Shown here piece by piece: positions 35,565-49,190 of a DNA stretch of 64,000 nucleotides. A program made the translations under genes and the position numbers. Position 1 is the first letter of the stretch. Every line of letters starts with the position of its first letter. Location of the stretch: the IMG/VR virus record IMGVR_UViG_3300029286_000014. One strand, given 5' to 3'. Under the pieces are notes generated by a model. It saw only the letters and a list, made by a program, of their open reading frames with translations, was not told the origin of the DNA and ran no database searches. The DNA comes from an uncultured virus (IMG/VR IMGVR_UViG_3300029286_000014). Lineage: Duplodnaviria; Heunggongvirae; Uroviricota; Caudoviricetes.

Positions 35565-37010
35565 ATGAGTCTATGTGATTATGGTTGTGGTCAAGAAGGA
35601 ATTTACAAGATTGGAAATAGATTATGTTGTTCTAAATCTTATAATTCCTGTCCTGCCAAAAAAGTTAGAAAAATTGTACCTAGAGAAAAACCAGAGGTTT
35701 GTGACTACGGATGCGGGCAAGAACCAAAATTTAGATTTGCCAATGATAAGTGGTGTTGTTCTGCATCGCAAAATGCGTGTCCATCTAAAGCAAAAAGATG
35801 TGCAGAAGCATCTTTTGGAAAAAGAGGGGATGGACACGCAAAACCTTTTGGCACAATCGAATTATGTTCTTTTGGTTGTGGAAAAATTGCTGAATTTAAA
35901 TACAAAAGTGGGCAGTATTGCTGTTTAGATGACTGGCATAGATGCCCAGGACAACATGAGAATATATCAAAAAGAACAACTATTATTTGGTCTGACAAAC
36001 AAAGAAGAAAAAATTTAAGCGACCTCAGAAAAAAGAATAAAAAAGTTCCTAAACCTATAGCTCTTTCTGAAGATACAGAATATAAATGTAAATATTGTGG
36101 GGAAAAAGCTAAATTTTTATTTAAAACTCATATGTTATATAGCTGTTCAGATCGCATTGAAAGGTGTCCAGTCGTCAGAGAAGATGCATCAAAAAAGAAT
36201 AAAATAAGATGGGAAGCCCCAGAATTTAGAGAAATGATGTCTGGAAGAGAGTGTTCTGAGGAAACAAGAAATAAGATAAGTAAATCTCAAATTGGAAAAA
36301 CAATATCAGAAGAGACTAAAAGAAAGATTGCTCTTACGAGAAAGGGAAAATCTTTAGAAGAATGGTTAGGAAGTAAAGAAAAAGCAGATGCCTATAGATT
36401 AAAAAAATCTTTACTTATGAAAGGTAAAACTTTTAAAGATAGATTTGGTGAAGAACGTGCTAAAGAAATAATAAAGAAAACCTCAGACAAATTAAAAGGA
36501 AGAACTCACACACTAGAAACTAGAAAAAAGATGTCTATAAAGAAAAAGGAGCACTGGAAAGACCCAAATGTTACTTACAATCAAAAAGAATGGCGAGAGA
36601 TGAAAGGAAGGAATACATCTCAACGATTGTTAGATCCAGAATATTGTAAAATGATGCAACAAGCTTTACATATGAAACCTAATAAACCCGAAACTTTATT
36701 GATAAATCTTTTTAAAGATCTAAATCTTGACTTTAAATATGTTGGTGATTTTTCAGTTATAATTAATGGTAAAAATCCAGACTTTATAGATGAAGAAAAG
36801 AGCCTCATCATTGAGTTTTTCGGCGATTATTGGCATGGAGAAAAATATAGAAATGATGGAATTAGTAATGAAACTCATGAACAACAGCGTATCGAACACT
36901 TCCAGCAGCAAGGTTACGAATGCCTCATAATTTGGGAGACAGACCTACAAGAAAACCTACAAGAAACAGTTAACAAGATTCTCGAATTTAGTTGTAATAC
37001 TCAATTATAA
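35565..37010 (+). CDS. free-standing homing endonuclease: Cys-rich repeats, NUMOD3 repeats and a Vsr/DUF559-like nuclease domain
   Basis: Four CxYGCG..CCS..CP-type repeats, SEETRNKIS/SEETKRKI/HTLETRKKMS, PDF...IIEFFGDYWHG. Confidence 0.8.
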   Translation: MSLCDYGCGQEGIYKIGNRLCCSKSYNSCPAKKVRKIVPREKPEVCDYGCGQEPKFRFANDKWCCSASQNACPSKAKRCAEASFGKRGDGHAKPFGTIELCSFGCGKIAEFKYKSGQYCCLDDWHRCPGQHENISKRTTIIWSDKQRRKNLSDLRKKNKKVPKPIALSEDTEYKCKYCGEKAKFLFKTHMLYSCSDRIERCPVVREDASKKNKIRWEAPEFREMMSGRECSEETRNKISKSQIGKTISEETKRKIALTRKGKSLEEWLGSKEKADAYRLKKSLLMKGKTFKDRFGEERAKEIIKKTSDKLKGRTHTLETRKKMSIKKKEHWKDPNVTYNQKEWREMKGRNTSQRLLDPEYCKMMQQALHMKPNKPETLLINLFKDLNLDFKYVGDFSVIINGKNPDFIDEEKSLIIEFFGDYWHGEKYRNDGISNETHEQQRIEHFQQQGYECLIIWETDLQENLQETVNKILEFSCNTQL

Positions 37011-40956: not shown

Positions 40957-41877
40957 ATGATATGCGATTATGGATGTGGAAGAGAAGCAAAATATACATT
41001 CAAAAATGGAAAGTATTGTTGTGAAAGTTGGGTTTCATATTGTCCAAAACAAAAAGAAAAAAATAAAAAAGGACAAGTTAAAAGATATTCACTTGATCCG
41101 AAAACAAGAAAAAATAAAATTGGAAATTGTGAATATTGTAACAAAGAACATGATGGAACTTATGCGAGTGGAAGATTTTGTTCTAAGAAATGTGCAAGAA
41201 AATATTCATCTAATATACACAGAGAAATGATAAATGAAAAAGTCTCTGCAACTTTAAGAAATGAGAAGTATAACAAAGAAAAACACATCTACAATTTAAC
41301 ATGCTTATGTTGCGAAAATTCATTTCAAAAAGAAATACATATTTCATCATACGAGCAAAAAAGATTTATTGCGATATGTGATAAATGTAAAAAAACAGCA
41401 AGGGAAACTGATTTAGATAATTTAGCTTTCAGATTTTGGTTAAAATTTAAGAAACAACAAAGAACTGTTGATGAAAAAATAAATAAACTTTCTTGGGATG
41501 AATTACCACATGCAAGAAAAAGAAAAAAAGTTCTTGAAGAACAAAACTACAAATGTAGTACATGTGGAATTGAAGAATGGAATGGTAAATTAATAACTCT
41601 TAGCCTCCATCATAAAGATGGAAATAATAAAAATAATAGTAGAGAAAATCTTCAATTCTTATGCCCAAATTGTCATACACAAACTGAGACATATGGTATA
41701 AAAAGTTTAATAAAAAGGAACCCTTCTGCTGTTGGAAAAAAACAAGTTTCAGATGAAGATTTATTAAAATATCTTCTTGAAAGTAAAAGTATTATTGCTG
41801 GGGTTCGTAAGGCAGGAATAACAGATACAAGAAGAGCAAAAAGATTGCTTAATAAATATTTTTCATTAAATAAATGA
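40957..41877 (+). CDS. HNH homing endonuclease with an N-terminal Cys-rich module
   Basis: CSTCG...LHHKDGNNKNNSRENLQFLCPNCHTQT. Confidence 0.9.
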   Translation: MICDYGCGREAKYTFKNGKYCCESWVSYCPKQKEKNKKGQVKRYSLDPKTRKNKIGNCEYCNKEHDGTYASGRFCSKKCARKYSSNIHREMINEKVSATLRNEKYNKEKHIYNLTCLCCENSFQKEIHISSYEQKRFIAICDKCKKTARETDLDNLAFRFWLKFKKQQRTVDEKINKLSWDELPHARKRKKVLEEQNYKCSTCGIEEWNGKLITLSLHHKDGNNKNNSRENLQFLCPNCHTQTETYGIKSLIKRNPSAVGKKQVSDEDLLKYLLESKSIIAGVRKAGITDTRRAKRLLNKYFSLNK

Positions 41878-41951
41878 TGCGCGATGGTGTAACAGAAACA
41901 CGATGGTCTCATAAGCCATAACTCCCAGTGCAACTCTGGGTTGCGCAACCA
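41878..41951 (+). tRNA. tRNA-Met (CAT)
   Basis: Cloverleaf, anticodon arm ATGGT-CTCATAA-GCCAT, encoded CCA. Confidence 0.85.
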
Positions 41952-41953
41952 AT

Positions 41954-42042
41954 ATTTGATGGGAGTCGAACACCATCAAATGCAGATCACCAGACAGGTC
42001 TGTGTACCTCCTGAATGTCGGCGGGGTAGCCGTTGTCTGGAA
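41954..42042 (+). ncRNA. unclassified pseudoknotted RNA, copy 1
   Basis: Second copy at 42679..42775 with pairing-preserving changes. Confidence 0.7.
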
Positions 42043-42145
42043 CTCAAAACAATACTTTTCCTTGCTAGGGATTAATCAACAAAATGTAACAAATAATAAA
42101 GATGATATGTTGTATCTTCTTTACTAAAAATAGCGAGGATTAAAA

Positions 42146-42676
42146 ATGAAAAAAGAAAAATTGGTCGATGGGTATCTGGTTTATCTAAAAGAAGATGAAC
42201 CTAAGTATGGTTTTTTTAGAGGAATTCACAAAGCAGTCAAGAGTTTTGGAAATGCCGCAGGAACCGCTGGGGAGACAATGGATCGGGGGCAAGCTGGAAT
42301 GGCAGAATTAAACAAAAAAATTGATGCAGTAGTTGCAAAAATGCCTGAAATCAGAAAATATCTACAGTGGATAGGGATAGGTGTTGTATCAATTATTGGG
42401 TTAGCAGTTTTTTTGAAGATTGTAAAAGCCGTTGTTCTTAATTCAAGAAAATGCTATAGAGTTTGTAAAACAAAGTCCAACGATTCACTAAGTAAAATAT
42501 GCATGTTGAATTGCAAAATTATGATTGCAAAACAAACAATTGCGGCATTAAAACAAGCTTGTGCATCAAGTAAAAATCCTGAAAAATGCAAAGCTAAAAC
42601 TGAAAAGAAAATTGCGGCTCTCGAGAAAAAGATTGCAGAACTGCAAAAGAAAGTTTCATATTATAAAGTAAATTAA
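42146..42676 (+). CDS. putative virion protein with a membrane segment and Cys-patterned C-terminus
   Basis: Late-like motif upstream. CASSKNPEKCKAK resembles the proteins at 3859 and 4494. Confidence 0.6.
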   Translation: MKKEKLVDGYLVYLKEDEPKYGFFRGIHKAVKSFGNAAGTAGETMDRGQAGMAELNKKIDAVVAKMPEIRKYLQWIGIGVVSIIGLAVFLKIVKAVVLNSRKCYRVCKTKSNDSLSKICMLNCKIMIAKQTIAALKQACASSKNPEKCKAKTEKKIAALEKKIAELQKKVSYYKVN

Positions 42677-42678
42677 GT

Positions 42679-42775
42679 ATTTGATGAGTTCACCCCCTCA
42701 TCAAATGCAGACCACCAGATAGGTCTGTCAGCCTCCTTTTTATTTTTAATCCGGTGGGGTAGCCGTTGTCTGGAA
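42679..42775 (+). ncRNA. unclassified pseudoknotted RNA, copy 2
   Basis: See copy 1. Confidence 0.7.
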
Positions 42776-42805
42776 TCCAAATTTTTGTTTGAAAGGAGAA
42801 ACACA

Positions 42806-43171
42806 TTGCCCAAAGAAGGAGATGTTGTTTTAATTTATAGGGATAATAGACCAATGACATTTGCCGAAATTCATGAGATAACATCAAACGAGAAAAAGAA
42901 TTGGTGGAATGTAGATTTTATTGGTTTGTCGTTACCTCTAACAAAATTCACATGGATTTTAAGAATGGAACAGTTAGACGGTGAAGATTTCACAATGGGA
43001 GGAACCCCAGTAAAAATAACTTCTTTAGAGAAGTTATTAAATGTACAAGATAAAAAAACTAAAGTTCTTGAAATACCAAAAAAGAAACAGGAAATAAAGA
43101 AGATGGGAAAGGTGATTCAATTAAGACCAAAAAAAGATGAACCACCAGAAGATGAACCATTAATTGCTTAA
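42806..43171 (+). CDS. hypothetical protein (TTG start)
   Basis: SD AAAGGAG upstream of TTG 42806. Confidence 0.55.
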   Translation: MPKEGDVVLIYRDNRPMTFAEIHEITSNEKKNWWNVDFIGLSLPLTKFTWILRMEQLDGEDFTMGGTPVKITSLEKLLNVQDKKTKVLEIPKKKQEIKKMGKVIQLRPKKDEPPEDEPLIA

Positions 43172-43178
43172 AGGTTAT

Positions 43179-43252
43179 TGGGAAATAGTTCAACAGCAGA
43201 ACTCTGGCCTTTGACGCCAGCAATCTAGGGGCAGAACCTAGTTTCCCTGCCA
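43179..43252 (+). tRNA. tRNA-Gln (TTG)
   Basis: Cloverleaf, CTGGC-CTTTGAC-GCCAG, CCA end, atypical T-loop GGCAGAA. Confidence 0.85.
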
Positions 43253-43266
43253 ACAAAATTTCTTGC

Positions 43267-43427
43267 GCTGCCTGTGAGTGGCCACCTGAAAATTACCAGA
43301 CGATGGATAAAAGCAGCCACTTGACTCCATCGTCTGTACTACGTCAGGGAGATTACCGTTTCGTAATGTCGGTCGAATAGAATGAGTGACTATGAATCCA
43401 ACCATTCTATAAAAGTCTCTGGGCAGC
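43267..43427 (+). ncRNA. unclassified ~160-nt multi-helix RNA with a pseudoknot
   Basis: Five nested helices plus a 7-bp loop pairing, GC-richer than its surroundings, directly after tRNA-Gln. Confidence 0.65.
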
Positions 43428-44220
43428 AACTTTAAAAATAAAAAGGAGAGTGAAAATGCTAGGAGCTTTAGCGATTATATGCACCACAATAGTTTTATTA
43501 TTATTGATTTCTTGGGGTATTATGTATGCTACTCTGAATAAATGTAAACATAAATATAATCCACCAGAAAATGGAATTCAAAAATGTATAAATTGTGGTG
43601 TTATACGTTATGATGAGTGTAACCATTCATGGAAAAGTATTGATGCTATAACTATAGGACCTACTATGGTTAATACTATACAATGTAAAAATTGTGGGGA
43701 AATCGTATATAGGACATTTAATTCACTAAAAGGAGAATAATTATGGGTTTCTTGAATATGTTTGGAGGAAAACCAGGTTATGTTTGTATTCGCTCTAAAA
43801 AAGATCCTCGGTGGAATTATGGGGAAAGGGTGGAGTCTCTAGTTGTTATGGCGGGTATACATCCTGTAATAACCGAAAAGATTGAAGAGCTAAAAAAATT
43901 CTATGGAGAACAGCCAGAGGATTTGGAATACAGTTGCATGAAAGATTAGAAGTACACCATTCCCCTTATCATAAAAATAAGGGGGATTTAAAAAGACTAC
44001 AAATACAAAGGAGAATAAATAATGATACAGAATATACAAGAACTTGCTTCAGAAGTTGCAAAAAGAGAAGGAAAAGAGTGTGAAGTAATAATTGGAAATG
44101 TTAGGGAAGTTTTAGCAATTATAAGCGATATGATTCATGAAGATCCGCATGTCGCTACAATTTTGGAAGAAAATGGTTTCAGAAGGGAGAAAGAAAAATC
44201 TATAGAACCAAAGTAATTAT

Positions 44221-44291
44221 GCGGGGATAGCTCAACGATAGAGCCCACAGATTGTACTGTGGAGATTCCTGTTAAACTCAGGATCCCCACT
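44221..44291 (+). tRNA. degenerate tRNA-like gene (Thr TGT-like, 6-nt anticodon loop, no CCA)
   Basis: D arm GCTC/GAGC, T arm TCCTG/CAGGA, acceptor stem with one mismatch. Confidence 0.5.
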
Positions 44292-48062: not shown

Positions 48063-49190
48063 ATGAAAACAGCAGTTATTGGGCTAGGATTTGGAGACGA
48101 AGGAAAGGGCAGAGTCGTAGATTGGCTCTGCTCTTATCGGCCCGATTCTTTAGTGGTAAGATTTTCAGGAGGATCTAATGCAAGTCATAAAGTTTATAAA
48201 CCAGATGGTTCTGGATTTCATGCTTTTTCAAATTTAGGAAGCGGAACATTCAGAGGATGCCCAACCTACTGGTCAGAGTTTTGTACTTTCGATCCTGCCG
48301 ATTTATTGTTTGAGGCCGAATACATCAAAAAAGCAGGAGTTGAAAATTTTAAACTCTATGTGAATTTAGATTGTCCAGTTGTTACCACATGGGATAAAAG
48401 ATACAACAAGATTCAAAATGATATGACTTTTCATGGGAGTTGCGGTGTCGGTCTAGGAGCTACTCATGAAAGAGAAGAAAATCATTATTCTCTTAGGGTG
48501 AGAGATTTATTTTATTATGATCTGAGATCACAAAAAGTAACAGAAATTATAAAATATTATAAATCTAAAGGAATCAAAGCAACCCTAGAAGAGATCGAAC
48601 TATTCTTCATTTGTGTAGAGAAATCTAAAGAATTATTCACACCAGTTGAAAGCATCCCTCAATCTGTTAATTATCTATTTGAAGGATCACAAGGATTAAT
48701 GTTGGATCAAAATTATGGTGTTTTTCCACATGTAACAAGAAGCAATACAGGAACACAAAACATCATTAAAATGGGATTTGATATGAATTCCTTCTTTCAT
48801 GATAGGTGTTTTCTTGTCACTAGAGCATACCACACTCGACATGGAAATGGATATCACCCAACCGACCATATTCCGCATAATATTAAAGAGAATCCCTATG
48901 AACAAAATGTAGAAAATTATCAGGGAAAGTTTAGAAGGGGATTACTTGATGTAAGTTTGTTGAAATACGCAATTGAAAAAGATAAGATTTTAAAAGGTAA
49001 TCAGTGTGATATGTCAATTGTTATAACATGTCTCGATTTGATAGAAAATGAATGGAGATTTGTTGAGAATGGGGTAATTGTAAATTGTTTAGATGAATAT
49101 GAATTTCTAACAAAGATTAAAAAATTACTACCCTATCCTATAGCGGTTAGTCGTACACCTTATGGGAAAATCGAAATATTTACACTCTAA
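48063..49190 (+). CDS. purA: adenylosuccinate synthetase-like protein
   Basis: GLGFGDEGKG, VRFSGG.NASH, SCGVG.G, FEGSQG.MLD..YG.FPHVT.S, TRHGNG. Confidence 0.85.
   Translation: MKTAVIGLGFGDEGKGRVVDWLCSYRPDSLVVRFSGGSNASHKVYKPDGSGFHAFSNLGSGTFRGCPTYWSEFCTFDPADLLFEAEYIKKAGVENFKLYVNLDCPVVTTWDKRYNKIQNDMTFHGSCGVGLGATHEREENHYSLRVRDLFYYDLRSQKVTEIIKYYKSKGIKATLEEIELFFICVEKSKELFTPVESIPQSVNYLFEGSQGLMLDQNYGVFPHVTRSNTGTQNIIKMGFDMNSFFHDRCFLVTRAYHTRHGNGYHPTDHIPHNIKENPYEQNVENYQGKFRRGLLDVSLLKYAIEKDKILKGNQCDMSIVITCLDLIENEWRFVENGVIVNCLDEYEFLTKIKKLLPYPIAVSRTPYGKIEIFTL

Follow-up and report, generated by a model that had tools for sequence, protein, structure and literature searches.

The locus described here lies in a 64,000-nucleotide (nt) stretch of DNA (the window) from the uncultured virus record IMGVR_UViG_3300029286_000014 and holds two diverged copies of a candidate structured RNA element, one on either side of a single open reading frame (ORF). 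The phage is large, tailed, and AT rich (31.7% G+C in the window), and the window contains genes for the large terminase, baseplate and tail proteins, and DNA ligase, as well as a transfer RNA (tRNA) cluster. On the + strand, which carries all annotated genes from 40957 to ~49190 when the longest ORF at each place is taken, an HNH endonuclease gene is followed by tRNA-Met, copy 1 of the element, an A/U-rich spacer of 100 nt, ORF176, copy 2, ORF128, and further tRNAs. The element is ~95 nt long, and its copies differ by 8 nt in length and lie 725 nt apart. An earlier reading of the DNA (the original prediction) had described an RNA with two pseudoknots, and the motifs it listed were all found in place in the sequence. 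A covariance model (R1) was built from both copies and run with filters off on the window; it recovered the two copies only, and the next match was hairpin 1 on the opposite strand at 15.9 bits. The copies and their hairpins (H1 to H3) and pseudoknots are as follows.

41952..42046, + strand: copy 1 (R1, 113.6 bits)
41954-41962 with 41973-41981, + strand: copy 1, H1
41982-41988 with 41997-42003, + strand: copy 1, H2
41990-41996 with 42034-42040, + strand: copy 1, pseudoknot a
42006-42010 with 42023-42027, + strand: copy 1, pseudoknot b
42019-42022 with 42029-42032, + strand: copy 1, H3
42677..42779, + strand: copy 2 (R1, 124.4 bits)
42679-42687 with 42698-42706, + strand: copy 2, H1
42707-42713 with 42722-42728, + strand: copy 2, H2
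42715-42721 with 42767-42773, + strand: copy 2, pseudoknot a
42731-42735 with 42756-42760, + strand: copy 2, pseudoknot b
42752-42755 with 42762-42765, + strand: copy 2, H3

Each copy opens with a 9-bp hairpin, H1, that directly abuts a 7-bp hairpin, H2, with no spacer between them. The 8-nt loop of H2 forms 7 bp with the 3′ tail, and the result is a canonical H-type pseudoknot (pseudoknot a) in which loop 1 is one A, stem 2 has 7 bp, and 0 nt separate the 5′ strand of stem 2 from the 3′ strand of stem 1. A 1-nt loop can cross the deep groove of 6 to 7 bp according to established pseudoknot geometry, and H1, H2, and the pseudoknot helix may stack into ~23 bp because no spacer separates them. 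The long third loop (38 to 46 nt) holds the 4-bp hairpin H3, the GGGGUA loop of which can pair with the upstream CCUCC (pseudoknot b). Nearest-neighbor energies of the single helices in copy 1 and copy 2, respectively, were −10.2 and −7.3 kcal/mol for H1, −8.3 and −10.6 kcal/mol for H2, −7.9 and −5.8 kcal/mol for pseudoknot a, −6.7 and −4.7 kcal/mol for H3, and −3.8 and −3.5 kcal/mol for pseudoknot b. The element is richer in G+C (47 to 51%) than the genome (32%), and A/U-rich sequence trails each copy.

Alignment of the copies spanned 103 columns with a mean identity of 85%. Within the core, made up of the two H1 strands, the whole of H2, the two pseudoknots, H3, and the 3′ tail, 66 of 72 columns were identical (92%, by manual count from the conservation line of the alignment), whereas the loop of H1, the 2-nt junction that follows H2, and the linker agreed in 4 of 26 columns (~15%), with gaps in 8 of the 26. 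The contrast between core and loops is unlike the pattern of recent neutral duplication. The CCUCCU and GGGGUA segments were unchanged between the copies, and the 20-mer GGGGTAGCCGTTGTCTGGAA occurred exactly twice in the window, a recurrence (two or more occurrences) seen in 0 of 100 shuffles. The five helices amount to 32 pairs, and these were paired in 64 of 64 cells across the two copies. Consistent with the original prediction, variation within the helices kept pairing in 6 of 6 differing columns: each helix contained one varying pair, and every variant was a standard pair. The H1 variant (G-C/A-U) was the one pair changed on both sides, and the other four (U-G/C-G in H2, C-G/U-G in pseudoknot a, A-U/G-U in pseudoknot b, and C-G/U-G in H3) changed on a single side, with C/U opposite G or A/G opposite U. 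When the 3′ partners were slid by 1 to 3 columns, pairing fell to 30 to 44% of cells. A two-row shuffle control was uninformative, as 245 of 500 shuffles reached the observed pairing value.

The strand of the element was indicated in two ways. G-U pairs were present in at least one copy for 6 of the 32 pairs and would be C-A mismatches on the − strand, and thus the structure exists on the + strand only. Folding z-scores were also better on the + strand (−2.71 and −2.78) than on the − strand (−1.62 and −2.25), so the earlier assignment to the + strand holds. The rarity of the architecture was gauged with descriptors. A loose descriptor (two 7-bp helices with at most two G-U pairs each) had 21 matches on the + strand compared to a mean of 18.5 in 20 shuffles, a count so near the shuffles that the H-type architecture alone is not special in this AT-rich DNA. 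When at least three G-C pairs per helix were demanded, the two matches were the two elements, and the shuffle mean was 0.025 (1 of 40 shuffles with a match), a contrast that partly mirrors the local G+C richness of 47 to 51%.

A relative of the locus was found in a freshwater sediment metagenome (run X5) with ~90% identity and the same tRNA-element-gene-element-gene order (records 17 to 21). The comparison used the listing of differences and not full sequences; the X5 contigs are thin (depth, 2.9 to 4.8), and 11 difference rows lie outside the comparison. In copy 1 of the relative, the H1 loop has five substitutions and a 1-nt deletion, three extra bases lie between the tRNA and H1, and the linker after CCUCCU gives way to a longer one (loose ends at 42012 and 42018). 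Two further substitutions fall in helices: 41977 C>T turns G-C into G-U in H1, and 41982 G>A makes the basal G-U of H2 an A-U. Copy 2 of the relative has an altered H1 tip (loose end at 42690) that lacks the apical G-C pair, and its linker is shorter by 2 plus 2 nt and has two substitutions. In the 3′ strand of its pseudoknot a, 42768 G>A replaces U-G by U-A, and 42770 C>T replaces G-C by G-U. Pairing was therefore kept by 4 of the 4 substitutions listed in the nine-pair H1 core, H2, and pseudoknot a. At column pair 44-92, copy 1 has C-G, copy 2 has U-G, and X5 copy 2 has U-A, which constitutes a full compensatory series. Moreover, the indels of X5 copy 2 (+1, −2, −2) shift the frame inside the element, and thus conservation is not at the peptide level.

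The two pseudoknots fared differently. The first, between the CCAGAYA loop and the 3′ UGUCUGG, pairs in both copies and gains independent support from the relative. The second, between (A/G)CCUC and GGGGU, is plausible and also has pairs that form in both copies, but it is short, sterically tight, and the weakest element of the fold: with the full pseudoknot b and H3 both present, a single A would have to span the shallow groove of a 5-bp stem, which argues that pseudoknot b is partial or alternates with H3. Pseudoknot b therefore probably forms in part or in alternation with H3. We conclude at the level of sequence that the fold, its strand, and selection on its paired core are real, and that the element is a strand-specific structured RNA of this lineage, represented by four sequences in total; four of its helices have good internal support, and the fifth has moderate support.

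The original prediction could not match the element to a known family, and a search of Rfam agreed. At gathering scores, Rfam 15 (4227 models) reported only eight tRNAs in the 64 kb. At E values of ≤10, the 1-kb region around the element gave the tRNA and five chance rows, those touching copy 2 being far below threshold (ceN22, 18.7 bits versus 45; FuFi-1, 16.1 versus 59.6), and each element alone gave no rows. Literature text on theta ribozymes, catalogues of phage RNA candidates, and work on exoribonuclease-resistant RNAs (xrRNAs) tied nothing to the motif, such text not being searchable by sequence. The element had also been called conserved, which stands within one phage lineage but not beyond it, as neither patterns nor the model found a homolog in IMG/VR, JGI metagenomes, or GTDB genomes. 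The IMG/VR record G001 is the same DNA (100% identity across the 3 kb compared), a JGI metagenome contig (L017/L018) also carries DNA of the phage, and at least half of the sampled words from 41000 to 44000 were present in three lake-water DNA runs, two of which are possibly the source sample. As far as these searches show, the element appears to be restricted to one freshwater phage lineage.

Matches to sequence patterns were judged by eye or with R1. Among viral contigs, pattern GGGGTAGCCGTTGTCTGG had one locus, G+C rich and unrelated; pattern CAGAYCACCAGAYAGGTCTG had one unrelated locus; and CCTCC-N5-30-GGGGTANNNNTTGTCTGG had two loci in apparent coding sequence with R1 scores of ≤7.2 bits. 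The pattern ACCAGAYAGGTCTGT-N2-5-CCTCC had five loci in metagenome contigs, two on the phage's own contig and three by chance (R1, ≤10.2 bits), and CCAGAYAGGTCTGT-N2-5-CCTCC had 26 loci in GTDB genome contigs with a best R1 score of 7.9 bits (E value, 0.95). A blastn search of the 1-kb region against GenBank phages found no match. R1 matched none of five IMG/VR records with large terminases 51 to 100% identical to that of the phage, and the relatives at 51 to 53% terminase identity were without the element. Run unfiltered over the whole of G003 (149 kb) and G002, R1 reached 12.8 bits at best (E value, 0.36); G004 and G005 were covered by a quicker R1 scan only. In G001, R1 found nothing further to ~16 kb past the window end, by our own coordinate arithmetic. 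In G003 (terminase 51% identical; L050, 1 to 12400), a transfer-messenger RNA gene and 12 tRNA genes share a single cluster and strand, and that cluster contained no analogous repeat.

The hairpin H1 on its own has many look-alikes in other phages. The H1-like pattern ATTTGATG-N8-16-CATCAAATRCAG occurred in 81 stretches of viral contigs (L066 to L145), far above chance, and these belonged mostly to two conserved hairpin families unrelated to the element, with which they share nothing beyond the hairpin. In roughly 50 contigs, a hairpin of one family precedes a GGAGG ribosome-binding site by ~20 nt. Eighty of the 81 stretches were scored with R1, and the top score among them (L145, 25.2 bits) was rejected as a copy: it sits in a 210-amino-acid (aa) open frame on the opposite strand.

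The genes and signals on either side of the copies are as follows.

40957..41877, + strand: HNH endonuclease gene (PHROG HNH families, best E value 9.4e-25; weak Pfam HNH, E value 0.0038)
41878..41951, + strand: tRNA-Met (CAU) with CCA encoded (ARAGORN; Rfam tRNA, 51 bits)
42146..42676, + strand: ORF176, 176 aa, with its TAA stop at 42674-42676
42793..42799, + strand: Shine-Dalgarno sequence AAGGAGA of ORF128, read from the sequence; pairs with CUCCUUU of the element (42733-42739) in an alternative fold
42806..43171, + strand: ORF128, 121 aa, from a TTG start at 42806

The stop codon of the HNH gene abuts tRNA-Met, its last base lying directly before the tRNA start. H1 of copy 1 begins at 41954, 2 nt past the tRNA-Met CCA, and H1 of copy 2 begins at 42679, 2 nt past the ORF176 TAA, both as originally proposed. 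The 2-nt spacing after CCA is correct for the window but is not a fixed distance, as the X5 relative has three more bases there. The end of copy 2 lies 14 to 18 nt ahead of the ORF128 Shine-Dalgarno sequence, and that of copy 1 lies ~90 nt ahead of the ORF176 Shine-Dalgarno sequence. On the + strand from 40.5 to 47 kb, no terminator-like site was found, and promoter-like sites were not in excess (23 versus 27.7 in shuffles). Another homing-endonuclease-like gene (NUMOD3 plus DUF559) occupies 35565-37010, and together with the HNH gene it makes the tRNA region resemble a hotspot for mobile genes.

The two proteins are unrelated to one another, and thus the arrangement did not arise by tandem gene duplication. 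One membrane helix is predicted in ORF176, and its tail is Cys/Lys rich and coiled-coil like. A word-indexed search returned its own cluster only (99% identity), no real family was found in Pfam, PHROG, PADLOC, or NCBIfam, and tblastn against GenBank phages found no match. In the predicted fold of its leader, the Shine-Dalgarno region UAGCGAGGA pairs with UCCUUGCUA, which lies upstream in the spacer that follows copy 1 (42056-42064 with 42128-42139, + strand), a pairing that may provide a separate translational control.

ORF128 belongs to an unnamed family with 184 representative relatives at E values of ≤0.001 and no Pfam family; 1 of 60 members weakly matched Gp22 and 1 of 60 weakly matched Cpn10. 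A relative 85% identical to ORF128 (P0003) is encoded on 21 contigs, of which the longest has 292,511 bp. The N-terminal ~75 aa were modeled by AlphaFold2 as a small beta-barrel (predicted local distance difference test [pLDDT], 86.5); a model from just three sequences was useless (pLDDT, 37.9). The barrel, after which come a Lys-rich linker, a GKVIxL motif, and an acidic tip, matched SH3/Tudor/KOW-type barrels generically (Z scores of ≤6.2), with likeness to EF-P domain I, the CarD N terminus, and the PcrA/UvrD Tudor domain (Z scores of 5.5 to 6.2). Foldseek had no match at E values of ≤0.001 (0.069 or more), a family profile had none among PDB sequences, and the ESM Atlas gave unnamed clusters only. 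Neither flanking protein matched a toxin in Pfam, PADLOC, or NCBIfam, a defense model, or, in profile searches, a family of single-stranded DNA-binding proteins (SSBs). In phage contig L065, the leader of an ORF128 homolog is plain, 65 nt long, and devoid of the element, and thus the RNA does not travel with the ORF128 gene family. The L065 homolog adjoins a gene that resembles a radical-SAM gene of the QueE type, as read by eye from the protein sequence.

One class of known RNA that resembles the element in position is the theta ribozyme, a minimal ribozyme like that of hepatitis delta virus (HDV) that lies by phage tRNA genes and is cleaved within ±5 nt of the tRNA 3′ end, according to PMC10879173. 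Compared with the layout given there, the element is likewise a small double-pseudoknotted RNA directly 3′ of a phage tRNA gene, with which it is presumably cotranscribed; its H2, as a first helix, likewise has 7 bp and is closed by a G-U wobble, and its second helix likewise uses the 3′ end. Unlike theta ribozymes as described in that text, the element has no P3 hairpin or L3 between the pseudoknot 5′ strand and the H2 3′ strand, its second-knot hairpin comes after and not before the 3′ strand of the first helix, the last strand is not preceded by an unpaired C, an additional 9-bp hairpin opens the fold, and no Rfam HDV model matched.

Identity with HDV-like or theta ribozymes was therefore rejected. 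The order required, taken from PMC10879173 and from general knowledge of the fold, is P1-P2-P3-L3-P3′-P1′-P1.1-(P4)-J4/2-P2′, and that of the element is H2(5′)-PKa(5′)-H2(3′)-PKb(5′)-H3(5′)-PKb(3′)-H3(3′)-PKa(3′), where PKa and PKb are pseudoknots a and b. With 0 nt between PKa(5′) and H2(3′), there is no P3/L3 at that place. The catalytic C of J4/2 is absent, and both copies have instead the paired GCCG of H3 followed by a single U (column 90). The P1-like H2 starts at 41982, which is 31 nt past CCA and outside the ±5-nt range, and a plain hairpin, H1, occupies the position 2 nt past it. A permutation of HDV strand connectivity was also rejected. The P1 and P2 helices of HDV lie side by side, whereas the zero-nt junction of the element forces stacking of H2 and pseudoknot a, and the G-U at the H2 base becomes A-U in the relative. 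Hammerheads in non-circular permutations are known (PMC10085705). Generally known layouts of twister, pistol, hatchet, and hammerhead did not fit the element, and their models do not score. The hammerhead-like UGAUGAG is present in copy 2 only, its first base is U and not C, copy 1 has G for A, and Rfam gave no hammerhead match.

Other identities failed for simpler reasons. The original prediction had offered an antitoxin-like RNA as one reading, which is unlikely: ToxI-like RNAs are tandem pseudoknot repeats of ~34 to 45 nt directly upstream of an endoribonuclease toxin gene, whereas the two ~95-nt copies lie 725 nt apart with an ORF between them, form no tandem array, and have no neighbor that matches a toxin or defense model. 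Template and variable repeats of a diversity-generating retroelement were rejected because the differences are not adenine specific, and halves of a group I intron because the two parts are homologous to each other and not complementary halves. H1 as a DNA operator palindrome is contradicted by 41977 C>T in X5, which keeps RNA pairing and breaks the palindrome. The difference of 8 nt in copy length and the frame-shifting X5 indels exclude a protein-coding repeat.

Three further systems were compared. The T2 gene 32 pseudoknot has a solved structure, and the T4 gene 32 leader has the sequence layout CC-A-GCTATGA-GG...TCATAGC, readable as a loop 1 of 1 nt, a stem 2 of 7 bp, and a loop 2 of 0 nt. 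The element shares this H-type geometry, in which loop 1 is one A, stem 2 has 7 bp, and no nucleotide lies between the stems, and A/U-rich, presumably unstructured RNA likewise leads from it toward a Shine-Dalgarno sequence, which is 14 to 18 nt away for copy 2 but ~90 nt away for copy 1. Unlike that leader, the element has a loop 3 of 38 to 46 nt that holds another hairpin and possibly a second knot, begins with an additional hairpin at its 5′ side, occurs in two copies before two unrelated ORFs, and shows no sequence likeness beyond CC-A...GG. As candidates for an SSB of the gene 32 type, which binds its own leader, ORF176 is membrane and coiled-coil like and ORF128 is a generic SH3/Tudor/KOW-like barrel. 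The xrRNAs (flaviviral xrRNA and coremin/xrRNA-C), compared by their descriptions only, are likewise compact knots at gene or RNA ends and are often repeated, and they are mechanical blocks to a processive nuclease, much as is tentatively proposed for the element below. The element differs in being larger (~95 versus 25 to 70 nt), in having no sequence likeness or demonstrated likeness of fold, and in having no ring around the 5′ end that could be deduced, and bacterial nucleases differ from Xrn1. Finally, riboswitches of the preQ1-II type are H-type pseudoknots with a hairpin embedded in loop 3. The element resembles them in its stem 1, its loop-to-3′-tail pseudoknot, its embedded hairpin by the 3′ strand, and a Shine-Dalgarno/anti-Shine-Dalgarno-like motif. 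However, Rfam gave no match to PreQ1-II or any riboswitch, the 3′ strand is UGUCUGG and not a ribosome-binding site, copy 1 comes after a tRNA, and the element holds no terminator or Shine-Dalgarno sequence within it.

We tentatively favor a function in cis, in which the element would be a module of a tRNA/mRNA polycistron that protects or marks RNA ends. Each copy would be transcribed within a + strand polycistron and would fold into a compact, stacked knot placed 2 to 5 nt past the end of the upstream product and before an A/U-rich single-stranded stretch. Host RNases would cut the precursor, and the RNA ends so made would then be marked or protected by the knot, which would stop exonucleases mechanically or serve as a 5′ or 3′ stabilizer. 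This reading is favored because of the co-orientation of the copies, their start 2 to 5 nt past a product, the A/U-rich stretch, and a G+C-rich knot with selected helices, and the promoter- and terminator-poor character of the + strand polycistron also speaks for it. Several points weigh on the other side. Among the public sequencing runs listed as containing sampled words of 41000 to 44000, and thus the locus, none is an RNA run. The 3′ trailer of a tRNA must be removed, and a nuclease-proof knot 2 nt past CCA would therefore require an extra endonucleolytic cut. Simple hairpins are usually enough as stabilizers, which leaves the need for a double knot unexplained. The spacing between tRNA and element is 3 nt longer in the X5 relative. 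The four sequences come from one lineage, with the X5 contigs thin and 11 of their difference rows outside the comparison. Lastly, CCUCCU and its modeled pairing with the next Shine-Dalgarno sequence would fit regulation at least as well.

That last point leads to a rival that is possible though less probable, namely, that the element controls translation of the downstream ORFs as an operator or switch, with CCUCCU as an anti-Shine-Dalgarno sequence. The knotted state would hold CCUCCU by the GGGGU loop of H3, an alternative fold would pair it with the ribosome-binding site of the next gene, and which of the two prevails would depend on a protein (compare T4 gene 32 autoregulation), a ligand, or the kinetics of folding. 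Consistent with a switch, the minimum-free-energy fold of 42677-42825 gives up the pseudoknot helix and pairs CUCCUUU (42733-42739) with AAAGGAG (42792-42798) through seven Watson-Crick pairs, and copy 2 ends 14 to 18 nt ahead of the sequence it would mask. The core pseudoknot has gene 32-type geometry with A/U-rich sequence after it, CCUCCU and GGGGUA are invariant in both copies, and ORF128 contains a barrel of a type that often binds nucleic acids or RNA polymerase, with a Lys-rich linker and an acidic tip. Copy 1 fits poorly, however: it is ~90 nt from the ORF176 Shine-Dalgarno sequence, with which just 4 bp are possible, and the leader fold there uses a different spacer segment. CCUCCU pairs with any strong Shine-Dalgarno sequence, so the pairing at ORF128 may be incidental, the ORF128 homolog in L065 has a plain 65-nt leader, and the fold matches of ORF128 are generic (Z scores of ≤6.2; Foldseek E values of ≥0.069).

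It is doubtful, and we consider it unlikely, that the element represents a new class of RNA knot that punctuates a tRNA/mRNA precursor, whether as a new self-cleaving fold or as the first phage RNA to stop bacterial exoribonucleases mechanically; in the exonuclease variant, it would be by analogy a bacterial counterpart of viral xrRNAs. Phage tRNA clusters are emerging as hosts of several kinds of small knotted RNA, theta ribozymes among them, and the element is a clean, compact test case at ~95 nt, with five helices that each have a natural pair-preserving variant and two copies that differ in their loops. Were self-cleavage or an exonuclease block true of it, a new fold would join a short list and could be a useful part for RNA engineering; were it merely a lineage-specific stabilizer or operator, it would be a modest addition to the catalogue of phage cis elements.

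Taken by itself, a new small self-cleaving ribozyme class that cuts the polycistron beside the tRNA and ORF176, in a theta-like role with a different fold, seems quite unlikely. The location of copy 1 directly 3′ of a tRNA is that of theta ribozymes (cleavage site within ±5 nt of the tRNA end; PMC10879173), the fold is compact and double pseudoknotted, and in both window copies H2 ends in a G-U wobble where it meets H1. The two copies also flank a small phage ORF, and PMC10085705 describes bacterial hammerhead and twister ribozymes as enriched near phage genes and near each other. On the other hand, no Rfam ribozyme matched even at E values of ≤10, and the order of helices differs from that of HDV and, by generally known layouts, from those of twister and pistol too. 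The conserved unpaired nucleotides from which an active site could be made are very few (A38, U90, AA98-99, and the CCUCCU and GGGGUA segments, in alignment columns), the junction after H2 varies (GUA versus CAG), and X5 copy 1 has A-U in place of the basal G-U of H2.

An equally improbable reading is that of a trans-acting decoy or sponge, freed by tRNA-processing enzymes in the manner of tRNA 3′ external transcribed spacer sponges, whose exposed CCUCCU and G-rich loop would titrate host or phage RNA or protein. Copy 1 is the 3′ trailer of a tRNA, two copies lie within one presumed transcript, the knot is compact, G+C rich, and probably stable, and it has neither a promoter nor a terminator of its own, which would suit an RNA released by processing. 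The candidate seed motifs, however, are paired inside the proposed fold, and nothing points to a target or sets the 3′ end of a released RNA.

We give still less credence to a repeat that acts mainly at the DNA level, with the copies as boundaries of an ORF176 cassette gained by recombination within a hyperplastic region of tRNA and homing-endonuclease genes and without RNA function of their own. T4-type phages have promoter/stem-loop cassettes, to which such an arrangement may be likened. The copies are direct repeats around exactly one lineage-specific ORF, the HNH gene and the homing-endonuclease-like gene at 35565-37010 are nearby, and the flanked ORFs are unrelated, so that no tandem gene duplication took place. 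Left unexplained would be five mutually complementary helices, the pair-preserving changes on one strand (6 of 6 columns between copies, which make up five pairs, and 4 of 4 listed in the relative), and the contrast of 92% and 15% identity between core and loops. Recombination between functional RNA modules could still account for the two copies, and it is most simply how two copies around one ORF arose; it would explain the arrangement and not the function.

Stimulation by copy 2 of read-through of the TAA from ORF176 into ORF128 is highly improbable: the two ORFs share a frame with one TAA plus 108 nt without a stop in a gap that copy 2 fills (stop free from 42677 to 42806), structured RNA begins 2 nt past the stop, and the X5 indels total −3, but copy 1 comes after a tRNA and not an ORF, ORF128 has a strong Shine-Dalgarno sequence and TTG start of its own, its homologs elsewhere stand alone at ~100 to 150 aa, and the X5 indels change the frame within the element.

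Minor features were noted elsewhere in the region. Three upstream ORFs of ~306 to 312 aa are not paralogs of one another. Of two tRNAs at 43179-43249 and 44221-44291 (+ strand), one was found by Rfam only (44.8 bits) and missed by ARAGORN, and the other was given an undetermined two-letter anticodon by ARAGORN and just 35.1 bits by Rfam. Farther downstream, at 48063-49190 (+ strand), lies an adenylosuccinate-synthetase-like gene (Pfam PF00709; E value, 1.7e-46). Its best PHROG match is the PurZ-type "2-aminooxy adenylosuccinate synthetase" (E value, 3e-51), which hints that the phage DNA may contain 2-aminoadenine in place of adenine.

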